Of a stretch of 64,000 bases of DNA, positions 2,484 to 55,066 are shown one piece after another. Numbering within the stretch: the stretch's first letter is position 1; each line of letters opens with the position of its first letter. The notes beneath the pieces are model-generated. The model had not been told where the DNA came from. It saw only the letters and a program-made list of their open reading frames with translations, and made no database searches. The stretch lies in NCBI GenBank assembly GCA_024278555.1, contig JAJRSX010000183.1, positions 4,043 through 68,042 on the forward strand. Reading direction: 5' to 3'. This DNA is from a bacterium (GTDB taxonomy: Bacteria; CG2-30-53-67; CG2-30-70-394). The position numbers were made by a program, and so were the translations under genes.

Positions 2484-5400
2484 TTGTATCGCCAGTCCAT
2501 ACGAAGCCTCTTCATTCTCGCCGTACTCGCTCTGGTAGTGCTTGCCCGGGCGGCGTCGGCGCAGATCCTCTTTGGCGAGAAAAAGTACCCGTACGAGCTC
2601 GGTGACGTCCTCCCGGGCGCCGCGGAGTTCGTCGAGCAGGAGGGGTACTGGGAGGCGTATGGGGCGGGCGGCAAAGGCGGCGACCCGGTGGGGTACGTCT
2701 TCCTCTCCGACAACCTGGTGGAGATCCCGGGCTACTCGGGCCACACCCTGAACACCTTGGTGGGGCTCGATCCCACCGGCAAGCTCACCGGCGTAAAGAT
2801 CGTCAGCCACGCCGAGCCGATCGTCCTCATCGGCCTGGACGAGCAGGTGATCCTCGACTTCGTCGCCCAGTACCCGGGCCATGACATTCGCGACCGGATC
2901 CTTATCAGCAACACCCCGAAGAGCGGCTACGTGACCGTGGACGGGATCAGCGGCGCCACGGTCACCGCGGTGGCGGAGAACGCCACCATCCTCAAGGCGG
3001 CGCGGACCGTGGCCAAGCAGGTGGGGATCGTCAAGGCGTCGGAGGTGCGTAGCCGCCGCCCCGCACCGGACTACCGCCCCCTCGACTGGCCGGCGCTGGT
3101 GGCGAACAAGGCGATCGGCCACCTCTCCCTCACCCCGGAACAGCTCCACCGCAGTGGCGACGACTCCACCCTCGACCTCTACTACGCGATCCTCGACGCC
3201 CCGGCGATCGGCCGGAATCTCCTCGGAGAGCGCTACTTCAAGATCGTCCAGGAGCGGGTGGCGCACGATGGGGGGTGCGCCCTCTTCATCGGCGCCCGCG
3301 GCCCGGTCTCCTTCAAGGGGGCGGGGTTTGCCCGCGGCGGCGTCTTCGACCGCTTCTCCCTGGAGCAGCAGGGCGACCTCTTCGTCTTCAAGGACATGGA
3401 TTACGTCAACCACTTCGACCTCCCCATCGAGGGCGGCGTGGAGCTCCATGAGGGGGGGGTCTTCTACATGAAGAACCCCGACTTCGATCCCGCCCAGCCC
3501 TTCACCTTCCACCTCACCCTCCCGTACCGGGTGGGGGACAAGAAGGAGTACGCCACCTTCCTGAGCGACTACGAGCTGCCCGCCGATTTTGTCGAGGAGG
3601 AGGTCCCCTTCTGGGTGACCCGCTGGCACGAGGCGCAGATGGAGGCGGCGGGTCTCGGCCTCTTCCTGATCGCGGCGGCCGCCCTCTTCACCTTCCGCCG
3701 CCGCCTCCTGCCGTACCGCAAGTGGTTCCACCGGTCCATCGCGGTGGTGGCGGTGGTGTGGGTCGGCCTGCTGATGCATGCGCAGCCCTCCACCACCCAG
3801 ATCCTCACCCCGGTCAACGCGGCGGTGCGCGGCAAGTTCCCCTTCGAGATCTTCCTCTCCGAGCCGCTGATCTTCTTGTTCTGGATCGCGATCCTCCTCT
3901 CCCTGCCCCTGTGGGGACGGGGCTTCTTCTGCGGCTGGCTCTGCCCCTACGGGGCGCTTTTGGAGCTCCTCACCACCGTGTGGCACAAGGTCGCACCCAA
4001 GCGGCTGGTGCGGCGCATCGATCGATGGGATCCGGGGCGCCTGTGGCGGTGGGGTAAGTACGCCACCTTCCTGGTGATCCTCGCGGTGGCCTTCGCCTCC
4101 CTGCCGGCGGCGGAGATGCTCGATGAGGTGGAGCCGTTCAAGACCTTCATCCTGCGCCTCGTGCGTCCGTCCCACTTCGTCGCCTACTTTGTCGTGGTCA
4201 CCGTCGGTTCGATGGTCGTCTACCGCGCCTTCTGCCGCTTCCTCTGTCCCCTCGGCGGGGCGCTGGCCCTGGTCTCCTTCAAGCCTCTCGACAAGCTGAA
4301 GCGGTACGAGCACTGCGGGACGTGCCACATCTGCTACAAGGGGTGTGAGCCGAAGGCGATCTCTCACGAGACCGGCCGAATTGACTACCGCGAGTGCCTC
4401 CACTGCTGGGACTGCCAGTCCACCGGTGAGGACCCCGCCCGCTGCCCGGAGCTGATCACCGCGGCCAAGAAGGGGCGGCCGGTGCGCCTCATGCTCCGCG
4501 CCTCGATCCTGGCGCTGTGCCTCGTCGCCACCACCGCGAGCGCGCGCACCTGGCAGGTGGCGCCCGAGGGGCGCCCGCTTGCCAAGACGCTGGCGGCGGC
4601 CGCCGACGGTGACACCGTCGAGGTGGCCGCCGGTCTCTACCGCGGCAACTTCGTGGTGGCGACGCGGATCACCCTCCACGGCGCCGACGGCGCGATCCTC
4701 GACGCCGGCGGTACGGGCCACGTCCTCGGGATCCAGGCGGCGGGGGTGGTGGTGGAGGGGCTCACCCTGCGCAACAGCGGCACCAATTCGGAGCGCTCCG
4801 ACTCGGGGATCTTTCTGGCGCAGTTGGCCGCCGACGTGCGCCTCCTGCACAACCGGGTGGAGCACTGTTGGTTCGGGATCTGGATCCACGGCAGCCCGCG
4901 GCCGGTGCTCATCGGCAACCGCATCGAGGGGATGGCGGAGATGCGGGTGAACGATCGGGGCGACGGGATCCACCTGTGGGACGTGGACGGCGCCGAGATC
5001 CGCGACAACACGGTCGTTGACAGCCGCGACGGCATCTACATGGAGCTGAGCCGCAACTGCCGGATCGTCGGTAACACCATCGAGCGCTCCCGCTACTCGA
5101 TCCACACCATGTGGTGTGACGGCAGCGCTTACAACGAGAACGTGGCGCGGGGCAACTATGTGGGGCTCGCCCTGATGTTCTCCAAGGGGATCGAGGCGCG
5201 CGGCAACACCCTCTACGACAACCGCACCCACGGCATCCTCCTGGTCCAGGATACGCGCAGCGAGATCGTCGACAACCGCCTGATCTCCAACACCAAGGGG
5301 CTGTTCGTCTACAACTCCCTCTACAACAAGATCCGCGGCAACCTGGTCGCTCGCAACCACCTCGGGATGCACTACTGGGGCGGCTCGGAGGACAACGAGG

Positions 5401-5795: not shown

Positions 5796-5997
5796 TCCAA
5801 GGGAGGTAGGGATTAGGGATGTAGGAAAATAGGGGAGGACAGCCCTTCGGGCTGATAAATATGCTGATGGAAGCCACCCACAAAACAATCATCGTCGGCC
5901 GCAGGCCGGCACCACCCCGATCTCCCTCACCCCTCACCCCTAACCCCTAAACCATGTCCATTGAGCAAATAGAGGCACCTCGTTTCGGGAGCACCCC

Positions 5998-6888
5998 ATG
6001 ATCCGTCTCGAAGCGGTCTCCAAGCGGTACGGCGAGCAGGTCGCCCTGCGCGCCATCGATCTGGAGATCCACCGGGGGGAGTGGCTCGGACTCTTCGGCC
6101 ACAACGGCTCGGGCAAGTCGACCCTCCTGCGCCTGCTGCTCGGCCTCACCCGCCCGACCACCGGGAGCCTGCTCATCGACGGCAAGGCGCCGAGCCCGGC
6201 CGGGTGGCGCCGCCTGCGCGAGCGCATCGGCTTCATGCCGGAGCGCATCGCCTTCTACGACCACCTCACCGGCCGCGAGATCCTCGCCTATTTCGGCCGC
6301 CTGCGCGGCGTCGGCGGGGAGCGGGTGGCGGCGGTCCTGGAGCAGGTGGGGCTGGAGGCGGCGGCGGATCGGCGGTTGGCGGGCTACTCCAAGGGGATGC
6401 GCCAGCGTCTCAACCTCGGCCAGGCCCTCCTCGGCGATCCCGAGATCATCTTCGCCGATGAGCCGGTGGAGGGGCTCGACCCCCAGGGGGTACGCGCCTT
6501 CTTCGACCTCCTCCACGCCGGGCGGGTGGAGACGGTGGTGATGTCGTCGCACCGGCTGGCCGAGTGTAGCCACCGGGTCGACCGTATCTGCGTCCTCAAC
6601 CAGGGGGAGGTGCGGGCACTCGGGTCGGTGGAGGAGCTCAGTCGCGACCTCCACCCCCCGGTCCACGTCCACGTCTACCCCTCCGAGTCCGCCAACGGCT
6701 CCCTCCAGACTACCCTCACCAATCTCGGCGCCACCGACGTGTCGATGCACCAGGGGGCGTGGGTGGCGGAGGTAGCGCAGGGGTCGAAGGTCGCATTCCT
6801 CGCCGGTCTGGCGGGGTGTCAGCCGCAGATCCGCCACCTCCACATCGAGGAGCCGAGCCTCGAGGAGCTCTACTTTGAACACGAGTGA
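5998..6888 (+). CDS. nosF: ABC transporter ATP-binding protein NosF
   Basis: Walker A motif GHNGSGKST, an ABC signature, and position directly after nosD. Confidence 0.8.
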   Translation: MIRLEAVSKRYGEQVALRAIDLEIHRGEWLGLFGHNGSGKSTLLRLLLGLTRPTTGSLLIDGKAPSPAGWRRLRERIGFMPERIAFYDHLTGREILAYFGRLRGVGGERVAAVLEQVGLEAAADRRLAGYSKGMRQRLNLGQALLGDPEIIFADEPVEGLDPQGVRAFFDLLHAGRVETVVMSSHRLAECSHRVDRICVLNQGEVRALGSVEELSRDLHPPVHVHVYPSESANGSLQTTLTNLGATDVSMHQGAWVAEVAQGSKVAFLAGLAGCQPQIRHLHIEEPSLEELYFEHE

Positions 6889-8973: not shown

Positions 8974-10027
8974 CCGCGACGCGGACGGAACCCTCGACCG
9001 GCGGGCCTTCCTGCGCCTGGCCGGATACGGCAGCCTCACCCTCCTCGGTGGTCCGCTCCTGCCGCGCCGCGCCGCCGCGGCGGTGGACCCGGCGGCGGTC
9101 ACCCGGATGGAGATCGAGGTGAGCTACCGCACCGAGGTGCGGAGCCTGCCCAGCGACGCGGAGCGGCTTCACCTCTGGATGCCCCTGCCGCCGGCGACGC
9201 CGAGCCAGGAGGTCCACGACCTCACCGTGCAGGCGTCGCTCCCCCACGAGGTGCGCAGCGAGCCGCTGTTTGGCAACCGGATGGTCTACGTCGCCAGCGG
9301 TCGCACGCCGAGCCGCTTCACGGTCGAGGCGCGCTATCGGATCGTGCGCCACCGGGCTACGGTGGAGTCGGCGGCGCTGTCACCAGCGGCGACGAAGCGT
9401 TACCTCCGCCTGCCGGGGAGGATGCGGGTCACCCCCGAGATCGACGCCTTCGCCCGCAAGGCGATCGGGGGGGCGAACGAGCCGACGCAGGTCGCCCGAC
9501 GGGTCTATGACGCCCTCATCGACTACCTCACCTACGACAAGCAGATCGCCGGCTGCGGCACCGGCGACACTGCCTGGATCATGAAGAGCCGGCGCGGCAA
9601 GTGCAGCGACTACCACGCCCTCTACACCGCCATCCTCCGTTCGCGAGGGATCCCGGTGCGCTGGGAGCAGGGCTTCCCCCTCCCGTACCCCACCGCCGGA
9701 GTCCGGGCACACGGCAAGCTGGCGGGTGATTGCACCGGCGCCCACTGCTGGGTGAGCTTCCATGATCCGGCGCGCGGCTGGGTGCCGGTGGACTGCTCCG
9801 AGGCGGACAAGCACCCCGAGCTGCACGACTTCTTCTTCGGCCACCTCACCCCGAACCGCTTCCAGATCTCCGAGGGGCGCTCCATCACCCTCAGCCCCGC
9901 CCAGGGGGGAGAGCCGCTGCCCGACTTCGCCTTCGCCTACGTCGAGGCGGACTCCATTCCGCTGATCTACCCGGCGAACTACGAGAACCTCGTCCGCTTC
10001 CGGGTTACCCGGATGGAGACCGCATGA
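8957..10027 (+). CDS. transglutaminase-like cysteine protease superfamily protein with TAT signal
   Basis: The TAT-type N-terminus is DRRAFLRLAGYGSLTLLGGPLLPRRAAAA. The transglutaminase core is GKCSDYHALYTAILRSRGIPVRWEQG ... GAHCWVSFHD ... VDCSEAD (Cys-His-Asp). Confidence 0.65.
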   Translation: MPLACDRDADGTLDRRAFLRLAGYGSLTLLGGPLLPRRAAAAVDPAAVTRMEIEVSYRTEVRSLPSDAERLHLWMPLPPATPSQEVHDLTVQASLPHEVRSEPLFGNRMVYVASGRTPSRFTVEARYRIVRHRATVESAALSPAATKRYLRLPGRMRVTPEIDAFARKAIGGANEPTQVARRVYDALIDYLTYDKQIAGCGTGDTAWIMKSRRGKCSDYHALYTAILRSRGIPVRWEQGFPLPYPTAGVRAHGKLAGDCTGAHCWVSFHDPARGWVPVDCSEADKHPELHDFFFGHLTPNRFQISEGRSITLSPAQGGEPLPDFAFAYVEADSIPLIYPANYENLVRFRVTRMETA

Positions 10028-10533
10028 CCTCCCGTTGTGCCAGGACCCTCGCCCCGATCCTCGCCGGCCTCCTCCTTCTCGGGGGAGTGGCCGAGGCGAA
10101 GGTCGCCAGGGTCGGTGAGCCGCCGCCCCTCTTCGCCCTGAAGGACGAGCAGGGGAGGATGCACCGCCTCCAGGACCTCCTCGGCAAGCCGATCATCCTC
10201 TACTTCACCCAGAACATGTGCCACTACTGCACCCAGGTGATCGGCTTCCTGAAGCGGGCCAACGCCGCCTATGGGGACCGGGGGCTTACCATCCTCACCC
10301 TCAACGTCTGGGCGGACAGCCCCAAGTACATCCGCCGCTACCGGGAGCAGTTTGGCCTGCCGTTCACCATGCTCCGCGGCAAGGACCGGGACCTCCTGCG
10401 GGGCTACGAGGTGAACTACGTCCCGATCATCGTCTTCATCGGCCGCGACGGCCGGATCCACCGCATCTTCGACCACTACATCCTCCCGGCCGACTTCGAG
10501 GCGAGCGTCCGGGAGATCGTGGAGGGGAAATGA
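10024..10533 (+). CDS. TlpA-like periplasmic thiol:disulfide oxidoreductase (redoxin family)
   Basis: Signal peptide plus the CxxC motif FTQNMCHYC, on a thioredoxin fold. Confidence 0.75.
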   Translation: MTSRCARTLAPILAGLLLLGGVAEAKVARVGEPPPLFALKDEQGRMHRLQDLLGKPIILYFTQNMCHYCTQVIGFLKRANAAYGDRGLTILTLNVWADSPKYIRRYREQFGLPFTMLRGKDRDLLRGYEVNYVPIIVFIGRDGRIHRIFDHYILPADFEASVREIVEGK

Positions 10534-10867: not shown

Positions 10868-11036
10868 CTAGGAGTCTGTCGGACTTTGGCGATCGTCGCG
10901 AGGGGAAGCGGGCCCGAGTTCGGATTGTGACCCGTTCGAGGAGCATAGTGGGCCTATGCGACGAAGAACGGGGCGCGATCCGGGCCGAGATCCGCTTTCC
11001 CGCAGTAGATCGGGCCAAAATCCGACAGACTCCTGG
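10868..11036 (-). mobile_element. MITE-like repeat copy A (TIR AGGAGTCTGTCGGA), reverse orientation relative to copies B/C
   Basis: About 170 bp bounded by inverted repeats. The internal sequence is the reverse complement of the core shared with copies B and C (GATCTACTGCGGGAAAGCGGATCTCGGCCCGGATCGCGCCCCG). Confidence 0.7.
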
Positions 11037-11205
11037 GGCTGGGGATTGGGCTGGGGCTTGAAAGGGGGGGCCAGTTACAAGGGCGCGAAGAGGGGGAGAT
11101 CCTCCCCGTGATATGGGAGGGGTGGGGGGAGTAGGGTGGGGAGATTGGAGGTGGAGGCGGGGGCTGAGGGGCAGCGGATGGGGCAGGGCGGACAGGGGTG
11201 GTGAT

Positions 11206-13619
11206 ATGGGGTGCGAGAGCTTTGATGGATTGTTCCGGCGGGCCACTGGCTTCGAGGAGCCATTCGGCTATCAACAGCGACTTGCCTGCGATTACGGGGC
11301 GGACGATTTCCCGGAGCTGGTGGATGTTCCCACCGGGTTGGGCAAGACGGCGGCAGTGGTGTTGGCGTGGCTGTGGCGGCGCCGGTTTCATCCGGATCGC
11401 GCGGTGCGCAACGCGACTCCACGGCGCTTGGTCTATTGCCTCCCGATGCGGGTGTTAGTGGAGCAGACCCACGACAACGTTGTCGCGTGGCTGGACCGTC
11501 TCGGCCTTCACGGCGAAGCGGGAGAGGGCAAGGTCTCCGTTCATCTCCTCATGGGCGGCGAGGACGACCTCCGTTCGTGGGCGGACTACCCCGAGGAGGA
11601 GATGGTCCTCATCGGTACCCAGGACATGTTGCTCTCTCGGGCACTGATGCGCGGCTACGGTATGAGCCGCTACCAATGGCCAGTCCACTTTGCCCTCCTG
11701 CACAACGATGCCCTGTGGGTTCTGGATGAGGTGCAGCTCATGGGGCCGGGGCTGGCCACCGCCTGCCAGCTTGAAGGGTTGCGGCGACGTCATGCGACAG
11801 CGCGGCCGGCGGCGACTCTGTGGGTTTCCGCTACCTTGCACCGTGACTGGCTCAGCACGGTCGATCTGCGGCCTCATCTGGACGGCTTCTCCATCCACCG
11901 AGTGAGCGGCGAGGAGATTGGTCACGACGCCATCCGAGAACGGTGTGAGGCGACAAAGACGATCGCGGCGGCATCTGTGAGTGCCCCAGCGCAGGCGGCT
12001 ACACAGGCGGGTACACGCGCCTACGTTCAGGCCCTCGTCGAAGAAGTTGCCGCTCGACACAAGCCTGGCTCCACCACCCTGGTTGTGGTCAACACCGTGG
12101 GCCGAGCGCAGGCGGTGTACACCGCCCTCGGCAAGGCAGGTGTTACGGCGGACCGGTTGCTGGTCCACGGCCGATTTCGTCCGTCAGAGAGGCGGCGTGC
12201 AAACGAAGCTCTGCGTGAGGAGCCGGGCCACGACGGTCGCATCATCGTTGCCACCCAGGCAGTGGAAGCGGGGGTCGACCTCACCAGCCGCACCCTCTTC
12301 ACCGAGCTTGCGCCGTGGTCTTCCCTGGTTCAGCGGTTCGGTCGCTGCAATCGGTACGGAGAAGAGGCGGAGGCACACATCTATTGGATCGATCTCGATG
12401 AGACCAAGCTCGCCCCGCCGTATGAGGCCGAAGAGCTGGCGCGGGCGCGCGCGGTGGTGGAACAGCTTTCCAGTGCTAGCCCAGTGGACCTGCCCCCGGT
12501 CTCCGGCGACCGGCCCCTCTACCCGGTCCTGCGCGACAAGGACCTCCTCGACCTCTTCAATACCGACTCCGACCTGTCGGGCTTCGATGTCGATGTCTCC
12601 CCCTACATCCGCGACGCCCAGACCACCGACCTGCGTGTCTTCTGGCGCGACCTTTCCGCCGGCGTGGACGGCCAGCCGCGGCCGGAACGCGACGAGCTCT
12701 GCACCTGCCCGGTGGGGGAGGTGGCGGCATACCTCAAACGGATCGCCAAGGATGGCGGCCGTGTCTACCTCTGGGATGGGCTCGGCGAGCGGTGGGCTCC
12801 CCTGTCCGGGCGGCCCCGCCCCGGCGTGGTCCTGATGCTCGATGCCGCCCGTGGCGGTTACGACGAGGGGCTCGGTTTCGCCAGTGGAGCGAAGAGGCCG
12901 GTGGCTCCCGTGGTGTCGCCCGACGTTTCGGTTCCGGAGACTTACGGTGGAGACACACGTAGCCACCTCACTGAACCGATCCCTCTCACGGATCACATCG
13001 GCCACGTAGCAGCGGTGACAGCCCAACTTGGTCGGGTGGTCGGGGCCGATGGAGACACTGAAGCCGTGTGCCGGGCCGCTGCCTGGCACGACGTGGGCAA
13101 GGCCCACGAGGTGTTTCAGCAGACCCTGACCCGTTGCCCACGGATGACCGACCGCCCCGGCGGTCCGTGGGCCAAATCACCCTGTGGTGGTCGCCACGCC
13201 CGCCCCTACTTCCGCCACGAGCTCGCCTCGGCCCTTGCCTGGCTCGCCCACCATGGTGACGAACCAGAGGCCGACCTGGTCGCGTACCTCATCGCCGCCC
13301 ACCACGGGCGGGTGCGCATGGGGATTCGTGCCCTGCCCGGCGAGAAAGAGCCGCCTGGGCCCGGTCGCCGTTTTGCCCGCGGCATCTGGGAAGGTGACGA
13401 CCTGCCGGCGCTCGTGCTCAACGACGGCGAGAGACTGCCGGCCATCCGGCTTGACCTCCACCTGATGGAGCTAGGCACCGGGCCTCAGGGCCATTCATGG
13501 ACAGCTCGCACCCAGGGACTGCTGGCGCGCTTCGGTCCCTTCCATCTCGCCTGGCTAGAGAGCCTGGTGCGCGTCGCCGACTGGCGCGCCTCGCGCGTCG
13601 AGCAGGAGGAGGAGCTGTC

Positions 13620-13623
<4 letters not shown>
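11206..13623 (+). CDS. cas3: Cas3 helicase with C-terminal HD nuclease domain (type I-G/I-U architecture)
   Basis: DEAD/DEAH helicase motifs (VPTGLGKTA, VLDEVQLMG), a helicase C region, and C-terminal HD motifs (AAWHDVGKAHEVF, AAHHGRV). ATG at 11206, though the ORF is open from 11113. Confidence 0.85.
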
Positions 13624-16729
<3,106 letters not shown>

Positions 16730-16730
16730 G

Positions 16731-18257
16731 ATGGTCGCCATTGCCTTCCGCTTCCCTGGGGGGCGCTACCACGCCACCCCCTGGGGACGCCATGTGAACG
16801 AGGCGGCAGTGGCGTGGCCGCCGGAGCCGTGGCGCATCGTCCGCAGCCTCATCGCCATCTGGCACCGCAAGACCGACCACGACGTCTATTCCGAGGAGGC
16901 GCTGACCTCGCTGCTCGCGGCGCTGGCGCGGGGGGAGCCGGTCTACCGTCTCCCCGAAGCAACCCATGCCCACACTCGCCACTACATGCCTGTGCGCTCG
17001 GGTCGGCAGGACAAGAACACCTTGATCTTCGACGCCTTCGTTCGTTTGGCGCCTGAGGCCGAGTTGGTGGTGGCCTGGCCCTCTGTCGACCTCGACGCCA
17101 ACCAAACCACGCTCCTCGACGCCCTCCTCACACCCCTCGGTTATCTCGGGCGCGCCGAGAGCTGGGTGGAGGCTCGGCGGCTGGAGGTGTGGGAGGGAGA
17201 ACCTAACTGTGTCCCTGGAGAAGAATCTGTCGATCCGGAGACCGGCGAGATCCTCGGTGAACCGGTACTCCTCCATCTGCCACAGACTCCCGATGACTAT
17301 CACCAGTTTCGCGTGCGAATGCTGGCAGGGCTTGAAGACTGCGAGTTGAAGCCACGAGAGCGCCAACGCGTCGAGGCGACCCTCCCCGAGGCGTGGCTCG
17401 CGGCGGTCTCGCTGGATACCTCCGACCTCCAGGCTGCCGGTTGGAGCGCGCCTCCGGCCGCGCGGCTCGTCCACTACCTGCGTCCTGAGACGGCTCTCCA
17501 GCCCATGGCCTCTCCCCAACCAAAACCGTCTCGCCCGTCAGCCGCCCCCACCACCGCTCGCTTCGCCCTTTACGGCCGCCCCCTGCCGCCCATGGAAGAT
17601 GCGGTGAAGGTGGGTGAGTGGCTGCGATGGGGGATCATGGGTAAGGCAAAACGGCTGTTGGGAGAGAATCGCATTCCACCGGAACTTGCCGGCCACAACG
17701 GCGGTCGCCCCGCCGAGGGACACGGTCATGCCTTTTTTCTCCCCGAGGACGTGGACGGCGACGGCCGTATCGACCACGTCGCCATTCACGTCCCCGGTGG
17801 GCTGTCGCCAGACGGATGCCGAGTGGTGGCCGCGTTGCGCCGTTTGTGGACGCGGGAGGGGCACGAGTGGCAGATCATTCTCGAAGCCCTGGGTGATGGG
17901 CCAGCGCTGGCGACGGCCACGCCACTGTTCGGCGAGAATCAGACCTGGCTTTCCGTCACCCCCTACCTACATCCGTGGCACGTGAAGAGGCGGTTCACTG
18001 TGGCGGACCAACTCCTCCGGGAGTGCGGCGAGCGGGGTCTTCCCGAGCTGTCGACGGTTGAGGCGATCCCCACGGTGCAGGTCGGTTCCCGCTCTCGCCA
18101 CGCCGTCCACTTCCACCGCTTCCGCGCTAAGCGCGGTCTCACCCAGCCGGACACCCACGGCTCTTTCTGGCGCCTCACCTTCGCCGAGCCCATCACCGGC
18201 CCCCTCGCCCTCGGCTTCGCCTGCCACTTCGGCCTCGGTCTGTTTCGCCCCGAGTAG
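16731..18257 (+). CDS. csb2: Csb2 (Cas5-Cas6 fusion, type I-G)
   Basis: The N-terminus FRFPGGRYHATPWGRHVNEAAVAWPPEPWRIVRSL fits GSU0054-family Cas5/6. Confidence 0.8.
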   Translation: MVAIAFRFPGGRYHATPWGRHVNEAAVAWPPEPWRIVRSLIAIWHRKTDHDVYSEEALTSLLAALARGEPVYRLPEATHAHTRHYMPVRSGRQDKNTLIFDAFVRLAPEAELVVAWPSVDLDANQTTLLDALLTPLGYLGRAESWVEARRLEVWEGEPNCVPGEESVDPETGEILGEPVLLHLPQTPDDYHQFRVRMLAGLEDCELKPRERQRVEATLPEAWLAAVSLDTSDLQAAGWSAPPAARLVHYLRPETALQPMASPQPKPSRPSAAPTTARFALYGRPLPPMEDAVKVGEWLRWGIMGKAKRLLGENRIPPELAGHNGGRPAEGHGHAFFLPEDVDGDGRIDHVAIHVPGGLSPDGCRVVAALRRLWTREGHEWQIILEALGDGPALATATPLFGENQTWLSVTPYLHPWHVKRRFTVADQLLRECGERGLPELSTVEAIPTVQVGSRSRHAVHFHRFRAKRGLTQPDTHGSFWRLTFAEPITGPLALGFACHFGLGLFRPE

Positions 18258-18391
18258 CCTCATCTTCTCGGTAACCTCCATGCCCTCCCTCGCTTCGTGG
18301 TGAAAAGACCGTGTAAATCCTTCACGACTACGAGGGTCGGTCCATCCGCCTGACGGACGAGCGCCTCGCCCATGTCTTGGAGCATCCGGAG

Positions 18392-18625
18392 ATGGTCGGG
18401 ATGGAGGCGGCGACCGAGGAGACCTTGGTGAAGCCGGAAGCGGTGGTCGGGTCGTTCAGCGACGAGACAGCCCATCTGTACTACCGTTTCTATGTGGGTA
18501 CCCGGGTCGGCGATAAGTACGTTTGTGTGGTGGTCAAGGTCGTTTCGGACGACGCCTTTGTGCTGACCGCGTATCTCACGGACAAGACGAAGAAGGGAAC
18601 GCAGATATGGCCAAACGAAACGTGA
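18392..18625 (+). CDS. DUF4258-like putative toxin; the conserved domain extends upstream of the first ATG into a frame closed by TAA at 18314-16 with no canonical start, so it is possibly decayed
   Basis: ...HLYYRFYVGTRVGDKYVCVVVKVVSDDAFVLTAYLT matches the DUF4258 C-terminal pattern. The upstream in-frame IRLTDERLAHVLEHPEM also fits the family but lacks ATG/GTG (only TTG at 18377). Confidence 0.4.
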   Translation: MVGMEAATEETLVKPEAVVGSFSDETAHLYYRFYVGTRVGDKYVCVVVKVVSDDAFVLTAYLTDKTKKGTQIWPNET

Positions 18626-18807
18626 AGATCTGGTACGACGCCGAAGGGGATTACCTGGAGGTGATCTACGATCAGCGGTCGGGCTATTTCCGTGAAACGG
18701 CTGCCGACCAGGTGACGGAGAAGGTGGATGAGGAGGGGGAGATTCTCGGGTTCTCCGTGTTACGGGTGAGCTCGTTGACGCGGAGCCCCCTGGAGGTGGC
18801 GCTCTGA
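18607..18807 (+). CDS. DUF2283 family protein (putative antitoxin partner)
   Basis: MAKRNVKIWYDAEGDYLEVIY...GEILGFSVL fits the DUF2283 signature. It overlaps the preceding gene's stop. Confidence 0.55.
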   Translation: MAKRNVKIWYDAEGDYLEVIYDQRSGYFRETAADQVTEKVDEEGEILGFSVLRVSSLTRSPLEVAL

Positions 18808-18832
18808 CGTCTCGCCGACGTGGGGCCGTAGG

Positions 18833-19033
18833 ATGATTGTGAAAATCACCTACGACAAAGAGGCGGACGCCCTCTACATTCGGCTGCTCGATGGGCATCA
18901 CGAGTGCCGGAATCTCGGAAGATCGAGTGTCCGATGGCCAGGTAGCTTGGGTCCCGGGTGTGTCCGTCGCGCGAGTCGTTCAGTCGCGGCCAGGTCCGTG
19001 CCGATCCGTAGAGAACTTTGTTTCTTTCGGTGA
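18833..19033 (+). pseudogene. second DUF2283 copy, truncated or frameshifted after ~21 aa
   Basis: MIVKITYDKEADALYIRLLDG matches the DUF2283 consensus almost perfectly, after which the frame degenerates into low-complexity Arg/Ser sequence. Confidence 0.35.
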
Positions 19034-19042
19034 GGTGCGGAA

Positions 19043-20788
19043 ATGGAAGCTGCCGACTCTGATGGCCGTGCGGGACGGGCGGGTGGGCCCGCGTCTCCCC
19101 CGCAGATCCCGGTGCGGATGCTCAACGAGTTCACCTACTGCCCGCGGTTGGGCTACCTCATGTGGGTCGACTCCGAGTGGGCGGATAGCCACCACACGGT
19201 GGAGGGACGGTGGCGCCACAAGCGGGTAGACAAGGCCCCGACCGAGGGGTTGCCCGAGGCAGACGGTACGCGCGATGAGCCGTTGCACGTGCGCTCGGTC
19301 AACCTGGGGAGTGAGCGGCTCGGCCTGGTGGCGAAGCTGGACGTGGTCGAGGCGGATGGCGAGACGGCCACCCCGGTGGACTACAAGCGAGGCAAGCGTC
19401 CCAAGGTCGAGGGTGGCGCGTATGACCCGGAGCGGGTCCAGCTCTGCGCCCAGGGGCTGTTGCTCCGCGAGCACGGTTATCGTTCGGAGGAGGGGGTCCT
19501 CTACTACGTCGGCTCGAAGGATCGGGTCACCGTCCCCTTCGATGATGACCTGGTCGCCTTGACCATGCGTCAGATCGAGCTCTTTGGGTTGGCGGCAGCG
19601 GCACCTCAGGCGCCGCCGCCGCTGGCCGACTCTCCCAAGTGTCCGTACTGCTCCCTGGTGGGAATTTGCCTGCCTGATGAGACCCGGATGCTGGCGCAAG
19701 AGACGACGGCGGATGCCGGCGACAACGGCAACGGCTCGAAGCCGGCACGCCATCGACCGCGACGTCTCCTGCCGGCGAGTGTCGATGCCCTGCCCCTCTA
19801 CGTCACCACCCAGGGGGCATACGTGGGAAAGAAACAGGAGGTACTGGTGATCAAGGAAAAGGGCGCCGTGGTGGCGGATGCGCGTATTCGCCACACCTCA
19901 CAGGTTGCCCTCTTCGGGAATGCTCAGGTCTCCACTCAGGCGCTGCGGGAGCTGTGCCGGAGGGGCATCCCGATCACCTACTTCTCCTCCGGCGGCTACT
20001 TCTACGGACTCAGCCATGGCATGAGCCACAAGAACGTGGGGTTGCGTATCGCCCAGTACGACACCGCGCGCAGGCCATCCCGTTGTCTCGACCTTGCCCG
20101 CCGTTTCGTGGCCGGAAAGATTGCCAACAGTCGCACGCTCCTGCGTCGCAACCATCGGAGCAAGCCGGAGGCAGAGCTCCGAGCACTCGCCCAATTGTTG
20201 CAGGAGGCGGAGGGCGCTGCTTCACTTCAGACACTCCTCGGTGTCGAGGGAATGGCCGCCCGAACCTATTTCGGTCGCTTCGGCGATCTACTCCGTCCCC
20301 CGGCCGGTGGTGATCCGGGGTTCGATTTCGAGCACCGCAACCGCCGTCCCCCGAGGGATCCGGTCAACGCCATGCTCTCCTTCGGCTACGCCCTCCTCAC
20401 GCGTGATTGGACCGTGACCCTGCTTTCCGTCGGTTTCGACCCCTATCTCGGTTTCTACCACCAGCCGCGCTACGGCCGTCCCGCCCTGGCGTTGGACATG
20501 ATGGAGGAGTTCCGCTCGTTGATCGTCGACTCTGTAGTGATATCAGCCATCAATAACGGTGAGCTCGGGGAGCCCGACTTCGTTCACGCCACCGGCGCGG
20601 TTGCCATGAGCACTCGTGGTCGTAAGGCCTTTCTTGCTGCGTACGAGAGGCGTCTTGCCCAGGAGATTTCCCACCCCGTGTTTGGCTACCGTATCAGCTA
20701 CAGGCGTATCTTTGAGGTACAAGCGAGACTACTCGCCCGAGTCATTCAAGGGGAAATTCCGGAGCTCCCCGCCTTTCGTCCGAGGTGA
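19043..20788 (+). CDS. cas1: Cas4-Cas1 fusion protein (probable true start ATG 19118)
   Basis: The N-terminal Cas4 part has MLNEFTYCPRLGY and the Fe-S Cys cluster CPYCSLVGICLPDE. The C-terminal Cas1 part has LPLYVTTQGAYVGKKQEVLVIKEKG. Confidence 0.85.
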   Translation: MEAADSDGRAGRAGGPASPPQIPVRMLNEFTYCPRLGYLMWVDSEWADSHHTVEGRWRHKRVDKAPTEGLPEADGTRDEPLHVRSVNLGSERLGLVAKLDVVEADGETATPVDYKRGKRPKVEGGAYDPERVQLCAQGLLLREHGYRSEEGVLYYVGSKDRVTVPFDDDLVALTMRQIELFGLAAAAPQAPPPLADSPKCPYCSLVGICLPDETRMLAQETTADAGDNGNGSKPARHRPRRLLPASVDALPLYVTTQGAYVGKKQEVLVIKEKGAVVADARIRHTSQVALFGNAQVSTQALRELCRRGIPITYFSSGGYFYGLSHGMSHKNVGLRIAQYDTARRPSRCLDLARRFVAGKIANSRTLLRRNHRSKPEAELRALAQLLQEAEGAASLQTLLGVEGMAARTYFGRFGDLLRPPAGGDPGFDFEHRNRRPPRDPVNAMLSFGYALLTRDWTVTLLSVGFDPYLGFYHQPRYGRPALALDMMEEFRSLIVDSVVISAINNGELGEPDFVHATGAVAMSTRGRKAFLAAYERRLAQEISHPVFGYRISYRRIFEVQARLLARVIQGEIPELPAFRPR

Positions 20789-21264: not shown

Positions 21265-22241
21265 ATTTCCGCAGCGTTAACGCTGCGGCCCCATTGAAGC
21301 TTGCGGATGATCTTGAACGCATGGCGACGCGGCAGATTTCCGCAGCGTTAACGCTGCGGCCCCATTGAAGCATTGCGACCTCCTCTTCAGAGCGCTTCTT
21401 TTTAGCGATTTCCGCAGCGTTAACGCTGCGGCCCCATTGAAGCAGCCCTCAGCGGGAGGGAGATTCGCAAGTTTTCCGGGATTTCCGCAGCGTTAACGCT
21501 GCGGCCCCATTGAAGCCAGGCGGGATTTGGTAGAAACGAATGAGGTCGTCACATTTCCGCAGCGTTAACGCTGCGGCCCCATTGAAGCGTGGCGTGGGTC
21601 ACGGCGGCGGCGGTGCTCTGCCTCGTTACCGCAGCGTTAACGCTGCGGCCCCATTGAAGCCGAGGAGCGGCACAAAGACGGGCGCACGTTCTATTTTATT
21701 TCCGCAGCGTTAACGCTGCGGCCCCATTGAAGCCCGACCGCGACAGTCTCAGCACGCCCCGCGCGGCCATATTTCCGCAGCGTTAACGCTGCGGCCCCAT
21801 TGAAGCTACGCAGTAGTCATAAGAGATCGACATCCCTAGCGTAATTTCCGCAGCGTTAACGCTGCGGCCCCATTGAAGCCCACGTCCTTCGACATGGACT
21901 TCGTCGTTGAGTTGATTTCCGCAGCGTTAACGCTGCGGCCCCATTGAAGCTCTAGGGCTGCTTTCGACGAGGTTCTGAAACTCCTCGCATTTCCGCAGCG
22001 TTAACGCTGCGGCCCCATTGAAGCGATCCATTGATTCCCACCCATGAGATTGCTCCATCTCATTTCCGCAGCGTTAACGCTGCGGCCCCATTGAAGCTCC
22101 AGCGGCAAGGTGGGGGACGGAGTCTACGGGTATGATTTCCGCAGCGTTAACGCTGCGGCCCCATTGAAGCACCCACTTCACTTCCCCCGCCACGGTTTTT
22201 TTGGTATTTCCGCAGCGTTAACGCTGCGGCCCCATTGAAGC
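21265..22241 (+). CRISPR. CRISPR array, 14 repeats / 13 spacers
   Basis: The 36-bp repeat ATTTCCGCAGCGTTAACGCTGCGGCCCCATTGAAGC has a palindromic core CCGCAGCG-TTAA-CGCTGCGG. Spacers are 35-38 bp. Repeat 6 (21625-21660) is a variant (GTTACC... instead of ATTTCC...). Confidence 0.95.
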
Positions 22242-22289
22242 GTAATGGGTTCGATGGCGTCGGCTATGTCGTCCGTTAAGGAGAGCGCC

Positions 22290-36244: not shown

Positions 36245-38179
<1,935 letters not shown>

Positions 38180-38220: not shown

Positions 38221-38442
38221 GGCAAATGCTGTCGATCGGGGGCGGGCGGTGACGGGGGGATCAACCGCACTCACCTGAAGCTCTACGTGGTGCGCAGCGG
38301 CGCCTTCGAGCTGGACAACAACGCCCAGGCCGCGGTGAAGCTGAAGTTCACCGGCCATCTGTGATGCACCGCCTGCGGCAGCTCTTGCGCTGGAGCCGCA
38401 CCCGGTGACAGTAGCGGGGGCTACTTGAGCCCGGCGTCGCCG

Positions 38443-38610
38443 GGAGCCTATCGAACCCATGCACGATCTACTGCGGGAAAGCGGATCTCGGCCCGGATCG
38501 CGCCCCGTTCTTCGTTGCATAGGCCCGCGTAGCGCTCGAACGGGTCGCAATCCGGACTCGAGCCAACTTCCCCTCGCGACGATCGCATAAGTCCGACAGA
38601 CTCCTAGATC
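38443..38610 (+). mobile_element. MITE-like repeat copy B (left TIR degenerate)
   Basis: Shares the core ...GCACGATCTACTGCGGGAAAGCGGATCTCGGCCCGGATCGCGCCCCGTTCTTCGTTGCATAGGCC...GATCGCATAAGTCCGACAGACTCCTAGATC with copies A and C. Confidence 0.7.
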
Positions 38611-39676: not shown

Positions 39677-40507
39677 GTGAGTCACATGGCGAGGTCAGAC
39701 ACAGCGCCAGAGAGCACGACGGGGGCGGCAAAGTCCGGTGAGTCGGAGCGGCAGCGGGTCCCGTCTCGCCGGCGGATCCGAGGTCACCGCCTGTTGCAGG
39801 GGAGCGTCATGGCCCCCTTCGATCTCAAGGCCGCGGACTCCATTGAGGACGTCACGGCGGCGCTCTCCCTGGTTCACGACAGCTACGTCGAGCTCGGTCT
39901 CATCGATCCCCACCCGTCAGGACTGCGGCTGCTGCCCCACCACCTCCTCCCGGAGACCCGGGTCTTCCTCGCCCGCGAGCACGAAGAGGTGGTTGCCACC
40001 CTCACCCTCATCCCCGACACGGAGGCTGGCCTGCCGCTGGACTCGGCGTACCGGCAGGCTGCCGATGGGTTGCGGCTGGAAGGGCGAAGGATCGGTGAGA
40101 TCTCCTGCCTGGCGCTTGCCCCTCGCTACCGTCGTCATGACGTCCTCCTCCATCTCTTCCGGATGATGCATGTCTGCGCCCGGGCCACTGGCCTCGACGA
40201 CCTGTGCGTCGTCGTCGCCCCCAAACACGGCCGTTTTTATCAGCACATCCTGCTCTTTGAGCCGTACGGCGGCTTTGCCGAGCTCGACCACCTCAACGGT
40301 GCTCCGGCGCTCCTCTATCGCCAGGACCTGCGCACGATCGAGGAGACCACTCATGGGTACTACGCCTCCTCGCCGGCTGCCGCGGACCTCTACCAGTTCT
40401 TCTTCGAAGAGGCGGCGACCGTCAGAGCACGGGCGACCGCCGGCCGCGGCTTGACCCCCGCGGAGGTCGAGACGCTCCTCATGGGCCATCCGGAGCTTCA
40501 TATCTAG
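39677..40507 (+). CDS. GNAT-fold N-acyltransferase, Acetyltransf_5 / N-acyl amino acid synthase-like (paralog 1)
   Basis: FDLKAADSIEDVTAALSLVHDSYVELGLID...TLTLIPDTEAGLPLDSAY...GEISCLALAPRYRR fits autoinducer-synthase-like N-acyl amino acid synthases. Known from memory: a PEP-CTERM/exosortase-associated subfamily exists. Confidence 0.5.
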   Translation: MSHMARSDTAPESTTGAAKSGESERQRVPSRRRIRGHRLLQGSVMAPFDLKAADSIEDVTAALSLVHDSYVELGLIDPHPSGLRLLPHHLLPETRVFLAREHEEVVATLTLIPDTEAGLPLDSAYRQAADGLRLEGRRIGEISCLALAPRYRRHDVLLHLFRMMHVCARATGLDDLCVVVAPKHGRFYQHILLFEPYGGFAELDHLNGAPALLYRQDLRTIEETTHGYYASSPAAADLYQFFFEEAATVRARATAGRGLTPAEVETLLMGHPELHI

Positions 40508-40751
40508 GAGTCTGTCGGTGGGCGCGTCGAGGGGGTGGGTGTCGGTGATTGACCGACGTTCGGTGTAGTAAAAACGCGACGGTATTGCCCGGCTGGGAGA
40601 GCGGAGGCGCTGGCGGTGTATGCCTTTCCAGCCACTTCCACGCCACCGCGCGAATACGGCGCTGTGAACCCCTGGCACGGTAATTGCTTCTTAACTAAAA
40701 GCTGCACCGCGGAACCCCTCCTAGTTCTTCCCTCCCCTCCTGGATATCTCG

Positions 40752-43916: not shown

Positions 43917-44203
43917 GAGCTTGGCACGCGCTCGTCATCAGGCCGCGCCTCCGGTTGCCCGCGCGGCCGAACGATCACCTCCAGCCCCAAGGTGCGCAAC
44001 GCCTTCAGCACCTTGCCGATCTCTGCGGTCTCCTTGCCCCGCTCGAGCTCGGAGAGAAATCGCACACTCAGATTACCCAGCCCCGAGATCACCTCCAGGG
44101 TCAGCTTTCGTTGCTTGCGGTGGGCGCGCAGCAGGTAGCCGAGCTCCTCGATCGTGCGGATGGGGCCGTAAGGGAGATCTGTCTTGGGCATGTGCGCCCT
44201 CAA
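43913..44203 (-). CDS. hipB: HipB-like XRE-family HTH antitoxin
   Basis: HTH motif RKQRKLTLEVISGLGNLSVRFLSELERGKE, located immediately upstream of hipA. Confidence 0.7.
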   Translation of the reverse strand: MRAHMPKTDLPYGPIRTIEELGYLLRAHRKQRKLTLEVISGLGNLSVRFLSELERGKETAEIGKVLKALRTLGLEVIVRPRGQPEARPDDERVPSS

Positions 44204-44219
44204 AAATGTACTGTACGGG

Positions 44220-44340
44220 AAAAACTAGCACGTACTATGGTCTGTTGCAACAAATTATTACCGTACGTGAAAGTCGACGCCATCACTCCACGAAACAAGA
44301 GGAATTATTACGTACGATACAAATATTGACCCTGGTGGAT
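44220..44340 (-). promoter_or_regulatory. AT-rich hipBA upstream region with multiple TACGTA/GTAC palindromes (candidate HipB operators)
   Basis: The motifs tactgtacggg, cacgtact, ccgtacgtg and ttacgtacga recur within ~100 bp immediately upstream of the hipB start. Confidence 0.35.
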
Positions 44341-44413
44341 GAGCCCGTCGTGTCGCCCGATCGTCGATCCACGCCTCCCCCTGCCTGTGATCGGCTTCGC
44401 CGGCCGTCCCCGA

Positions 44414-45484
44414 TCACGGCCCCGCGAGGAAGCTCGCCGCCGGCCGCCGCAGGCTTCGGGCGCGGGCGGGGGGGCCGTGGCCGACGCGAAAGAGGAGGAC
44501 CATGGCGCTCGCCTCGTCCACCGGGAAGAGGCCGCGAAGCAGCTTCCACGCCTCCTCCAGCCAGCGCCGCTGGCGACCGTCGAAGGCGTCCGGGCCGTGG
44601 CGCAGAAGCCGGCGGATGAAGAGGGTGGCGACGGTCATCGGCTGGAAACGGATCGACTCGGCAGTGGCGGCGAGCCAGATGCGTTCCATCGCCCTCCCCC
44701 CCTTGAGAAAGGTGGTCTCCCCCTCCTGTGGTGACCACAGGAGCCCGATCGCCGGGGCGGAGACGGCCAGACGGGTGGTGGGGAGGGTGAGGCCGCGATA
44801 GGCGCCCAGGCGGTTGAGGGCGGCCATACGCGGCCACGGTCGCACCGCCTTCAGAAAGGGGCCGGCGAAGGGGCCCGCCTCCAGGGTAGGGATCGCCATG
44901 CCGTCGCGGGTCGCCTCCGCCTCGGCGCGGGAGAAGCGCAGCTCCGCCATGAGCGACTCGTGGGCGAGCGGATGGGTGTAGCGGACCCAGTCGGCGAGGC
45001 GGATCACATGGCAAATCTTCGAGAGCGCTGCCTGCTCCGTGAGCCAGGTGAGGGTCGTGTCGGAGGTGGCGGCATCCGCCACCTGGTTCGCCAGCCAGTC
45101 GGCAGGCAACGGCCGCCGGTCGAAGGGCCGCCGGTTCACGCACCGCCCGGGGATCGCCGCGGCGAGCGGCGAGTCAAGAGGCTCTGCGGGCTCGAAGGTC
45201 AGGCGCGCCACCGGCCCCTCCCCCCCCTCGGGCCACCATGCCATCTCGGCGCCAAACCCCCGCGCCCCTGCCTCCAGCTCGACGTTGGCCGCCACGGCGC
45301 CCGCCGAGGCCAGCGCCCCGACTCGGTCTACCTCGAAGAAGTTGTCGCTCCGCTCAGCGTCCAAGAAGAGGTAGAGGCTCTCTCCCTGCCACCGGAACCG
45401 CCACGGCTGCGAGTTGTCCCCCGACGGGGCGCGTATCGCCGCCGCCAGGAGGGCTTGCCGGGTCGCCTCGTCCATTCCCGTCAT
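44414..45484 (-). CDS. nitroreductase-family / SagB-type dehydrogenase-like protein
   Basis: Nitroreductase signature IRAPSGDNSQPWRF. At 356 aa it is about twice the size of a single nitroreductase domain. Its ATG overlaps the ThiF-like gene stop (ATGA). Confidence 0.55.
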   Translation of the reverse strand: MTGMDEATRQALLAAAIRAPSGDNSQPWRFRWQGESLYLFLDAERSDNFFEVDRVGALASAGAVAANVELEAGARGFGAEMAWWPEGGEGPVARLTFEPAEPLDSPLAAAIPGRCVNRRPFDRRPLPADWLANQVADAATSDTTLTWLTEQAALSKICHVIRLADWVRYTHPLAHESLMAELRFSRAEAEATRDGMAIPTLEAGPFAGPFLKAVRPWPRMAALNRLGAYRGLTLPTTRLAVSAPAIGLLWSPQEGETTFLKGGRAMERIWLAATAESIRFQPMTVATLFIRRLLRHGPDAFDGRQRRWLEEAWKLLRGLFPVDEASAMVLLFRVGHGPPARARSLRRPAASFLAGP

Positions 45485-46311
45485 CCGAGTTTCCGACGCA
45501 GGTACCACAGCTTCGCCCGCTGGATCGGGTTGCGGTTGCCCCACGGCATTACCCCCTTCTTGTAGATCCTGCAGTAGGGATCGAACTGGAAGTAGCGGGG
45601 TGCGCAGGGCGGCCGGCCGCGCTTGAGGAGGATTCGGATCGCCTCGGTGGCCGCCATGCCGGCGCACAGGTCTGTGGCCAGCGCCAGCGAAGGCCCCTTG
45701 CCCGAGCGCAGGTCCACGTGGCCGAGGTCCATGTAGGCGAGCTGGGTTGCCCGGGGGGTGAGGCCGAGGGCGAAGCGGAGGCGTTGATCGAACACCTCCT
45801 GCCCATCGTGAATGTCGAAGTAGTCATCGAAGGTGGTCCCGCGGGGGTCAAACACCAGCATGGCGCAAGAGAAGCCGATGGGCCCCGCGGTGATTACGTA
45901 GATGCCACGCTCAGCGGCCTCCCGGAAGAGGAGTCGCCTGGCGTCGAGGGCGAAGAAGTCGAGTCCGTCCACCACCAGATCCACGCCGTCGAGGAAGGCA
46001 TCGATGTTCCCCGCGTGGATCCCCTCGGGAAAGGAGACCACCTCCGACTCCGGGTTGATCTTCGCCACCCACTCCGCCATCACCTCCACCTTCGCCCGTC
46101 CTACCGTATCCACGCTTGCCCCGAATTGGCGGTTGAAGTTCGCCTCCTCGAAGAGGTCGAGGTCGGCAAGGTGGAAGCGGCCGATCCCGAGGCGTGCGAA
46201 GGTGGCGGTGTGGATGCCACCGACCCCACCGAGACCTGGGATCGCGATGCATCGTGTCGCGAGCAATTGCTGCTCCACCTCATCGATCAGGCCACGATTG
46301 CGAGAGTACAC
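45481..46311 (-). CDS. ThiF/MoeB/HesA-family E1-like adenylyltransferase
   Basis: Nucleotide-binding motif IAIPGLGGVGG and E1-like Rossmann fold; 276 aa, no rhodanese or E2 domain. Confidence 0.6.
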   Translation of the reverse strand: MYSRNRGLIDEVEQQLLATRCIAIPGLGGVGGIHTATFARLGIGRFHLADLDLFEEANFNRQFGASVDTVGRAKVEVMAEWVAKINPESEVVSFPEGIHAGNIDAFLDGVDLVVDGLDFFALDARRLLFREAAERGIYVITAGPIGFSCAMLVFDPRGTTFDDYFDIHDGQEVFDQRLRFALGLTPRATQLAYMDLGHVDLRSGKGPSLALATDLCAGMAATEAIRILLKRGRPPCAPRYFQFDPYCRIYKKGVMPWGNRNPIQRAKLWYLRRKLG

Positions 46312-46393
46312 GGGCGGTCCGGGGTGGCGGGGGTGTTGCCTGGAGGCTCCCAGGGGAGGAGGGGAGAGGCTACGGCAAGAGGTCGATGATCAC

Positions 46394-46582
46394 TAGGAGC
46401 CTGTCGGACTTATGCACGATCTACTGCGGAAAAGCCGATCTCGGCCCGGATCGCGCCCCGCTCTTCGTTGCATCGAATCGCGGGCAGGAGCCCGCTCCTA
46501 CCGCTCCTCGAACGGGTCGCAATCCGGACTCGAGTCCGCTTTCCGTCGTGACGATCGCATAAGTCCGACAGACTCCTAGATC
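46394..46582 (+). mobile_element. MITE-like repeat copy C (best preserved, 22-bp TIRs CTAGGAG[C/T]CTGTCGGACTTATGC)
   Basis: The left end is CTAGGAGCCTGTCGGACTTATGCACGATCTACTGCGG... The right end ...CGCATAAGTCCGACAGACTCCTAGATC is its inverted complement. Confidence 0.75.
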
Positions 46583-46590
46583 GGCAACGT

Positions 46591-47895: not shown

Positions 47896-48012
47896 GGCGA
47901 GGCTCGTGTCGGTGGGCGTACCGCCATTGCACCACGGGTGCCGCGGGTGGCGGAACCCGCTGATCGAAGATCAATCGCCGTGGGCTTTTGCCGGCAGGCT
48001 GCAATCCAGGCC

Positions 48013-48044
48013 GAAAAAAAAGAGGCCCGCCGGAGCGGGCCTCT
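48013..48044 (-). terminator. rho-independent terminator (hairpin + U8 on minus strand) downstream of the giant repeat protein gene
   Basis: The minus strand reads GAGGCCCGC-tccgg-CGGGCCTC followed by TTTTTTTT. A second GC hairpin lies at 48057-48085. Confidence 0.65.
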
Positions 48045-48106
48045 GAAGGGTGCGAAGGAGGCGGGGCAACGTACGCCCCGCCTCCTTGGTGTGATCTCCC
48101 CGGCGG

Positions 48107-51961: not shown

Positions 51962-52056
51962 GGAGCGGTTCGTTTTCTGGTTGATCCTCACGGTGGATTC
52001 CTTTCTGAAAGGGTACGGCTGGAAGGTGAACGAGAGAAGAGCCGGTACTTGGTTCT

Positions 52057-52182
52057 GGGAGTCTGTCGGACTCGGCCCGGAAGGGCTTCGTAACTCATTG
52101 AAACCATTGCGTTCGTGTTTCAGAATCCAATGATGCACTTTCAATGAAAACAAACCCACATGGAGAAAATCCGACAGATGCT
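52057..52182 (+). mobile_element. MITE-like element copy E (same TIRs GGAGTCTGTCGGAC...ATCCGACAGATGCTC, different low-GC internal sequence)
   Basis: The terminal inverted repeats match the family, but the internal ~100 bp is unrelated and AT-richer. It lies ~100 bp upstream of the giant protein start. Confidence 0.5.
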
Positions 52183-52899
52183 CTCTGAAGTTGAACTCTC
52201 AATGTTCAATGCATGCAAGTTTGATGCCGTGTGCCGCGAGCCCCCCTCTGTCGAGGGCGTTGTGGCGGAGTGAAACCCTGAAAAATTATATAGTTGCAGG
52301 CAGCGCCTTTGGTGCCGTCCGGGTCCATTGAGGGGGGCGCTGTCGCTAATAGATACAGACAGCAGGAGTCGGGTCGCGAGTAAGTTGTAAACGCTGTGGA
52401 CACTTTACCGCCGTGCTATTGCATGGATGATGCTGCATTTCTCGTGTTTACCGCTAGTTATGGGCGCAAAGCAGTTGTTTATTTCTTTGACAGTTCTCCT
52501 CCCGGAGTTTTCTGGATGAGACGGGCGCGGCACATACGGCACACCGAGAAGAGGGCGCCGGAGTCGGTCGAGTCGTGGTGGCGATTGGCGACGATACAAG
52601 AATTGTTGCCGCCGGCCGCCGAGGGTGGTTGCCGAGGGTGGTTGTCGTTCAACCATTGCGAGGCTCAAGATTTGTCACGCCCGGTTTCCCGGAGGTACGC
52701 GATAGTGGAGGATGTCCGGCCCATGGAGGTTTCGCAGATGAGCCACGTGCGGGGGCAGAGGGGGGCTTCGATCCCATCAATGGGCGCGGGGGCTGGCCGT
52801 GTGGCGACCGACGTGTTTTCCGGAGTCGCCGTGCTGCCGCGTCGATCGGCGGAGCCGGAGAGCCGGCGATGGGGGAATGCAATCGCTCCCCAGCTCTTG

Positions 52900-55032: not shown

Positions 55033-55066
55033 GTAATGACGGTGTCGCGCGTGGCGAGAGAATGTA

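Follow-up and report, generated by a model that had tools for sequence, protein, structure and literature searches.

Many bacterial MITEs arise as internal-deletion derivatives of a full-length IS; REPs, by comparison, are palindromes of 20–40 bp, typically with a GTAG or CGTC head, and are associated with RAYTs. Among described elements, the YPAL/RU-2 repeats of Yersinia (167–169 bp) are enterobacterial repeats with a long stable stem-loop and many intergenic copies, for which a TA target duplication is described. In Methanosarcina acetivorans, MITEs derived from the IS1182-family element ISMac2 are 160 and 169 bp long and have inverted repeats of 25–26 nt; one of the two is listed with a direct repeat of 4 bp and the other without (PMC3852290). 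Another member of the IS1182 family, ISPsy36, targets the 4-bp palindrome GGCC (PMC8027508). Correia, ERIC, RUP and Chunjie are short non-coding elements with terminal inverted repeats (TIRs) that form long hairpins and lie between genes, and their known hosts are narrow, namely Neisseria, Enterobacteriaceae, Streptococcus pneumoniae and Geobacter uraniireducens, respectively (PMC3184786).

Here we analyse a family of repeats in a 64,000-nt stretch of bacterial DNA (hereafter, the window). The copies are very probably those of a MITE that has the ends of an ISAzo2-related subgroup of IS1182, inserts at CTAG and belongs to a lineage of about 168 bp rather than being a fresh local deletion. They share their TIR class and the CTAG on both flanks with ISAzo2/IS1182 ISs (NF033551), but are only 168–187 bp long, non-coding and unrelated to them in the interior. 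Parent family and size are similar to those of the ISMac2-derived MITEs, whose host, in contrast, is archaeal; the two are likened by description and no homology is claimed. Length class, the long stable stem-loop and the many intergenic copies recall YPAL/RU-2, which differs in its TA duplication from the CTAG flanks seen here; identity with YPAL was rejected, as there is no sequence similarity (global alignment z ≤ 1.1). The general build is also that of Correia, ERIC, RUP and Chunjie, but ends, target duplications and hosts are other, and the ~168-bp family spans several phyla whereas those four are narrow in host range. Identity with Chunjie was rejected on its 9-bp direct repeats (PMC3184786).

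Copies in the window

Direct reading, repeat finding and alignment agree on three clear copies, A, B and C, which are pairwise 87–92% identical over their arms (MAFFT alignment). Repeat finding returned the direct families D7, D10 and D13, of which D7 corresponds to a further copy, D, and the inverted pairs I1–I5. The 19-nt end CTAGGAGYCTGTCGGACTT matches the window six times at three or fewer mismatches, versus 0.02 times in shuffled sequence, and the conserved core quoted in the first-pass annotation, GATCTACTGCGGGAAAGCGGATCTCGGCCCGGATCGCGCCCCG, occurs exactly in copies A and B and with two mismatches in copy C. A covariance model made from 28 foreign copies and copy A, applied to the full window with its filters disabled, found no further copies in the 64 kb beyond A, B, C, D and an element, E, discussed below. 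The first-pass annotation had counted at least five copies with TIRs of 14–22 bp; three are clear, the fourth is decayed and the fifth has the ends only, and the TIR estimate falls short of the full symmetry, every element being an imperfect palindrome throughout its length.

Copy A (10868–11036, − strand, 169 bp) is near-intact and was identified, with the span first noted, by repeat finding, alignment and the covariance model, in which it scores 138.8 bits, copy A itself being among the model-building sequences. It is flanked by CTAG on its low-coordinate side and CTGG on the other, and lies between an AhpC/TSA-like ORF (10024–10533) and cas3 (11113–13623). The cas genes (11113–20788), which run from cas3 to a cas4-cas1 fusion (19043–20788), adjoin a CRISPR array (21265–22264) with 14 copies of the 36-nt repeat ATTTCCGCAGCGTTAACGCTGCGGCCCCATTGAAGC. 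Copy B (+ strand, 168 bp), found by repeat finding, MAFFT alignment and the covariance model (78.1 bits, E = 2.1e-18), lies downstream of acs (36245–38179) and spans 38440–38607 rather than 38443–38610. Its left end has six transitions in 23 nt and the flank CCGG, its right end is intact with CTAG, and the copy is probably immobile. Copy C (+ strand, 187 bp including both CTAGs) spans 46393–46579 rather than 46394–46582 and is supported by alignment, folding, the covariance model (99.9 bits, E = 6.2e-24) and an empty site; it lies between a ThiF gene (45481–46311, − strand) and a TPR gene (46591–47895, − strand). At its hairpin apex, about 19 extra nucleotides (roughly 46481–46500) form a GC-rich stem-loop of their own, and the conserved apex motif is replaced.

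Copy D (+ strand), found by repeat finding and the covariance model, is longer than first annotated (52900–53070 versus 52900–53030). Both its ends are degenerate, its left 60 nt are ~70% identical to copy C, and with 18.8 bits (E = 0.002) it is counted as a decayed member. Element E (52055–52187, no strand assigned) is ~130 bp long, with CTGGGAGTCTGTCGGACTC as its left end, a right end that is degenerate and an unrelated, AT-rich interior. It scores 12.6 bits (E = 0.08), and BLAST of its core among 120 loci gave no match; E may be a distinct MITE that shares these ends, or else a chance or incomplete relic, and its membership of the family is uncertain. It overlaps the predicted start of a 1350-aa ORF (48107–52159, − strand) that has DUF4215 and DUF7467 repeats and includes twelve 93-bp tandem units at 49766–51088. 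A solo left end, CTAGGAGTCTGTCGG (40504–40518, + strand), is a true remnant of the family, as its orthologous site in a relative holds an element. The window copies form a decay series, from intact (C and A) through mutation of one end (B) and general decay (D) to the solo end.

The finding of a MITE accounts for the repeats of the window and for its recurring pseudo-ORFs. ORFs that cross the copies arise artefactually from the repeated ends: the peptides RSLSDF and RSLSDL, which the first-pass annotation had rightly traced to the repeats, are translations of AGGAGTCTGTCGGACTTT and AGGAGCCTGTCGGACTTA, as read directly in the sequence, and a Pfam search of ORFs that overlap copies, for example 45238–46389, gave no match.

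The proposal that copies mark the boundaries of accessory blocks fails for copy C and the solo end. Both lie in spacers of a gene block made of FeeM, patatin, nitroreductase-like, ThiF and TPR genes, whose synteny is preserved in relatives whether or not these carry the elements, so that such repeats cannot be taken as island-boundary markers. Element E and copy D do lie at the left edge of a stretch of lower GC (51000–57000), where GC content is 51–57%, except for a 65% bin (52500–52999) that contains the left end of D, versus 61–72% upstream (44000–51000). This stretch encodes a GMC oxidoreductase, an aldo-keto reductase and a glycosyltransferase, and may be acquired DNA.

Ends, target site and insertion

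The end CTAGGAGYCTGTCGGACTT occurs in at least 120 genome stretches in a scan of one genome per species. The matches listed include Gamma-, Beta- and Zetaproteobacteria, Desulfobacterota, Nitrospirota, Verrucomicrobiota, Bacteroidota, Spirochaetota and others. Inverted pairs of the end in the loci listed have a sharp mode at 167–170 bp of outer length; a few pairs have lengths of 50–80, ~118, 200–235 or ~275 bp. A handful of pairs in these loci, at 1546–1708 bp, are full-length elements whose ends are exactly of the window type and which contain a single ORF of 440–480 aa with the Pfam domains DUF772, DDE_Tnp_1 and DDE_Tnp_1_6. Their transposase passes the IS1182 family model NF033551 (358.4 bits, cutoff 270), and its scores with the IS5 family models lie below the cutoffs of those models. 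Among plasmid sequences, the closest annotated relative is ISAzo2 (Aromatoleum aromaticum EbN1; 59% identity), which has the ends CTAG-CAGCCTGTCGGGCTT...GTCCGACAGGCTG-CTAG; the TIR of the window elements, ~16 nt, is GAGYCTGTCGGACTT, of the same class as CAGCCTGTCGGGCTT. No IS1182-type transposase was found in the 64-kb window by tblastn, in agreement with the first-pass annotation. One contig from elsewhere (L083) contains an IS1182 transposase fragment together with a MITE.

In most elements, full-length ISs included, the GAG...CTC body lies between two CTAGs. CTAG is present at 51 of 65 far ends, full-length ISs again included, a count that is a rough guide only, because in most pairs one end had been picked by a scan pattern that itself contains CTAG. 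Relatives of the window are labelled Nitrospirae or Nitrospirota MAGs. For copy C, three related contigs (L130, L131 and L132), which encode the same TPR-ThiF gene pair with a TPR protein 85% identical to that of the window, have an empty site with a single CTAG, GCCGAT-CTAG-TGATC, where the window reads GCCGAT-CTAG-[GAGTCTG...CAGGCTC]-CTAG-TGATC. Copy C is a clean, lineage-specific insertion into CTAG, which is now present on either side of the element; the two copies of the duplicated target lie at 46393–46396 (left) and 46576–46579 (right), and the comparison dates the insertion after the split from these relatives. Because CTAG is palindromic, a 4-bp duplication of CTAG and a duplication of TA by an element with GGAG...CTCC ends give the same sequence.

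The solo end has a filled counterpart. A contig of the JGI metagenome 3300023507 (L127), whose acs protein is 96% identical to that of the window, has a complete 172-bp element at 5969–6140, 86% identical to copy A, directly after the first FeeM gene. At the orthologous place the window keeps the first 15 nt only, so that the solo end is a deletion remnant from which ~157 bp have been lost. Copy B is absent from the spacer downstream of acs in the relatives L121–L127. The left side of that spacer is unalignable in relatives whose acs proteins are 91% and 96% identical to that of the window, so that only the right boundary of copy B is exact and an empty site was not obtained. The same L127 contig has, downstream of acs (~3353–3530), a different palindromic element of ~175 bp, CTAG-bounded and with the ends CTAGATTCTGCACTCCTTCG, which may represent a second CTAG-targeting MITE family in a close relative.

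[quoted passage not shown] A special preference for stop codons was rejected: CTAGs that flank elements double as TAG stops in 19 of 99 cases, versus 44 of 264 for other non-coding CTAGs (Fisher p = 0.64). The position of an element seems to be set by the presence of a tolerated CTAG.

These data bear out the first-pass suggestion of a non-autonomous IS derivative, with IS1182-type ends, CTAG flanks, an empty site for copy C, a filled site for the solo end and no transposase in the window. As is usual for a MITE, the elements are short and non-coding, have TIRs, show a target duplication against the empty site, occur as dispersed copies and share their ends with a transposase-bearing element. 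We infer that an IS1182-type transposase mobilizes them in trans: its gene would lie outside the window, and this DDE enzyme would bind both ends of the element and insert it at the palindromic CTAG, which would leave CTAG on both sides.

Hairpin and strand asymmetry

The first-pass annotation had also suggested folding the repeats, and RNA folding gave z-scores of −8 to −12 for copies A and C and −2.6 for copy B, whose fold is weak owing to the six transitions in its left end. RNAalifold on 29 elements predicts a single long end-to-end hairpin of 49 pairs, 30 of which have pair-preserving changes on both sides. Standard pairs are formed by 92.1% of cells, versus 77.7% with partners shuffled (0 of 500 shuffles reach 92.1%) and 29–42% with partners slid by 1–3 columns; the covariation score is 0.38 as observed, 0.13 when shuffled and 0.05–0.10 when slid. 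In the interior helices 5–7, both sides have changed in 18 of 19 pairs. Asymmetric internal loops are conserved in sequence, which argues against arm-to-arm homogenization as the only cause.

The two strands differ in their folding. The strand complementary to the orientation of the covariance model folds more stably in all 29 elements and in 18 of 20 further elements, other subfamilies included; with DNA folding parameters the same strand is the more stable in 28 of 29. The consensus folds at −76.8 kcal/mol for the complementary strand versus −46.6 kcal/mol for the other. In the window, the better-folding strand is the + strand for copy A and the − strand for copies B and C.

Covariation over the whole hairpin, conserved unpaired motifs and the consistently better folding of one strand are also what would be seen if the repeats were in the first place structured-RNA genes or modules, with terminal repeats that are merely the base of the stem. 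This explanation is improbable, however, since the ends are common to transposase-bearing IS1182 elements and CTAG is duplicated around copy C, for which an exact empty site is known. Orientation shows no bias towards neighbouring ORFs (14 versus 12 downstream of a gene, 11 versus 13 upstream), and no promoter-like or terminator-like sites were found in copies A and C. Rfam 15 gave no match in the window at gathering score, and on copy A chance-level matches only at E values up to 10.

For the MITE, the strand asymmetry of folding is unexplained by a plain model of double-stranded DNA transposition. We take the hairpin and its asymmetry to mean that selection has acted on the element itself in a single-stranded form. 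Our best guess is that the hairpin would serve mobility, or tolerance of so short an element: a cruciform or single-stranded DNA stage could juxtapose both ends of an element whose length is close to the persistence length of DNA. We think that a host RNA function is less likely than such a role. If the hairpin is needed for movement, the family would inform how DDE transposases handle very short elements.

The ~168-bp length class and its interior

Far from being confined to the window, which the first-pass annotation had named as an outcome that would count against it, the family has dozens of copies in other genomes. Cultured carriers of its canonical class include Halomonas pelophila CS7, Marinobacterium aestuariivivens NBRC 111756, Extensimonas perlucida HX2-24 and Pseudomaricurvus alcaniphilus. 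A GC-rich subfamily has four more copies on four contigs of one JGI metagenome and one on L127. Elements of ~168 bp from different phyla align in register, with the same length and motifs, and the interior of the window elements aligns with that of elements from Gamma-, Beta- and Zetaproteobacteria, Desulfobacterota and Nitrospirota. The ~168-bp lineage is present in Pseudomonadota, Desulfobacterota and Nitrospirota, that is, in at least three phyla. Its conserved interior has the motif ATCTACTGCG on one side and CTCGCTACGATC on the other, and the apex motif TTCGTTrmATAG-n5-7-CTATkCGCCTCrAA. The covariance model separates the two orientations of an element by ~70 bits, so that the polarity of the element is conserved. 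A conjugative plasmid of Pseudomonas sp. MPC6, pMPC6-328K, has a copy (L134, 1430–1615) with the interior of the family and the variant end GGAGGCTGTCCGAGAA; this copy abuts the end of another ISAzo2-like element at a shared CTAG.

These alignments bear on the origin of the elements. Ends that match those of IS1182-type ISs, together with the usual origin of many bacterial MITEs, would fit recent derivation, by internal deletion, from a full-length IS of the source genome. Such an origin is very improbable, though, as past the outermost ~20 nt the interior is similar to the subterminal regions of none of seven full-length elements, and none of the three interior motifs is present in the seven full-length ISs. 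Against it stand also the in-register alignment, with the same motifs and length, across Gamma-, Beta- and Zetaproteobacteria, Desulfobacterota and Nitrospirota, and the Pseudomonas plasmid copy, which keeps the core with a different end variant. Of what marks a derivative of an IS1182 element, the cognate transposase passes the family model, and an interior taken from the subterminal regions of the parent was not seen. Because the interiors are dissimilar, it is only the ~20 nt at each end that point to an origin from an IS1182-type IS, and the putative tie to this family runs through the ends and the target only. On the evidence of its sequence, the element appears not to be a fresh internal deletion of a local IS, and to form a lineage of ~168 bp with interior motifs of its own.

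The first-pass label of REP-like RNAs called to mind extragenic palindromes of the REP/BIME type, which a RAYT (tyrosine/HUH) transposase spreads and which are likewise intergenic, palindromic and multi-copy. The 168-bp length in place of 20–40 bp, genuine TIRs bordered by duplicated CTAG, ends in common with DDE IS1182 elements and the missing GTAG or CGTC head make that explanation scarcely credible.

MITE status and insertion at CTAG are ordinary biology, with the exception that the same ~168-bp hairpin element occurs in at least three phyla. Fixed length, a conserved interior of its own with heavy compensatory change and a spread over several phyla are unusual among bacterial MITEs. It is possible, although we hold this only tentatively and consider it doubtful, that the interior is a functional, strand-specific module of single-stranded DNA or RNA, maintained by selection in three or more phyla whatever the precise sequence of the ends. 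A hairpin or cruciform would then let the DDE IS1182 transposase act on an element below the bending length of DNA or, alternatively, the interior might act as RNA. If so, the elements would represent a long-lived, horizontally travelling MITE lineage with an adaptive structure of its own.

A literature search, ISfinder not covered, found no published description of the ~168-bp family, which can now be searched for by its ends, its CTAG target and the covariance model. Many of the matches to CTAGGAGYCTGTCGGACTT lie ~100 nt from the end of a contig, where a repeat that interrupts assembly would be expected, and the family therefore breaks many metagenome assemblies. Twelve viral or proviral contigs of IMG/VR (L139–L150) have the exact 19-nt end, mostly ~100 nt from the contig end. 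A search of the literature by end and core sequences matched only a Geobacter sulfurreducens primer, OmcE_fwd (GAGCCTGTCGGACTTGGAAAT; PMC11077965, Table 2), which is a family end sequence; a copy of the family probably lies upstream of omcE in this species.
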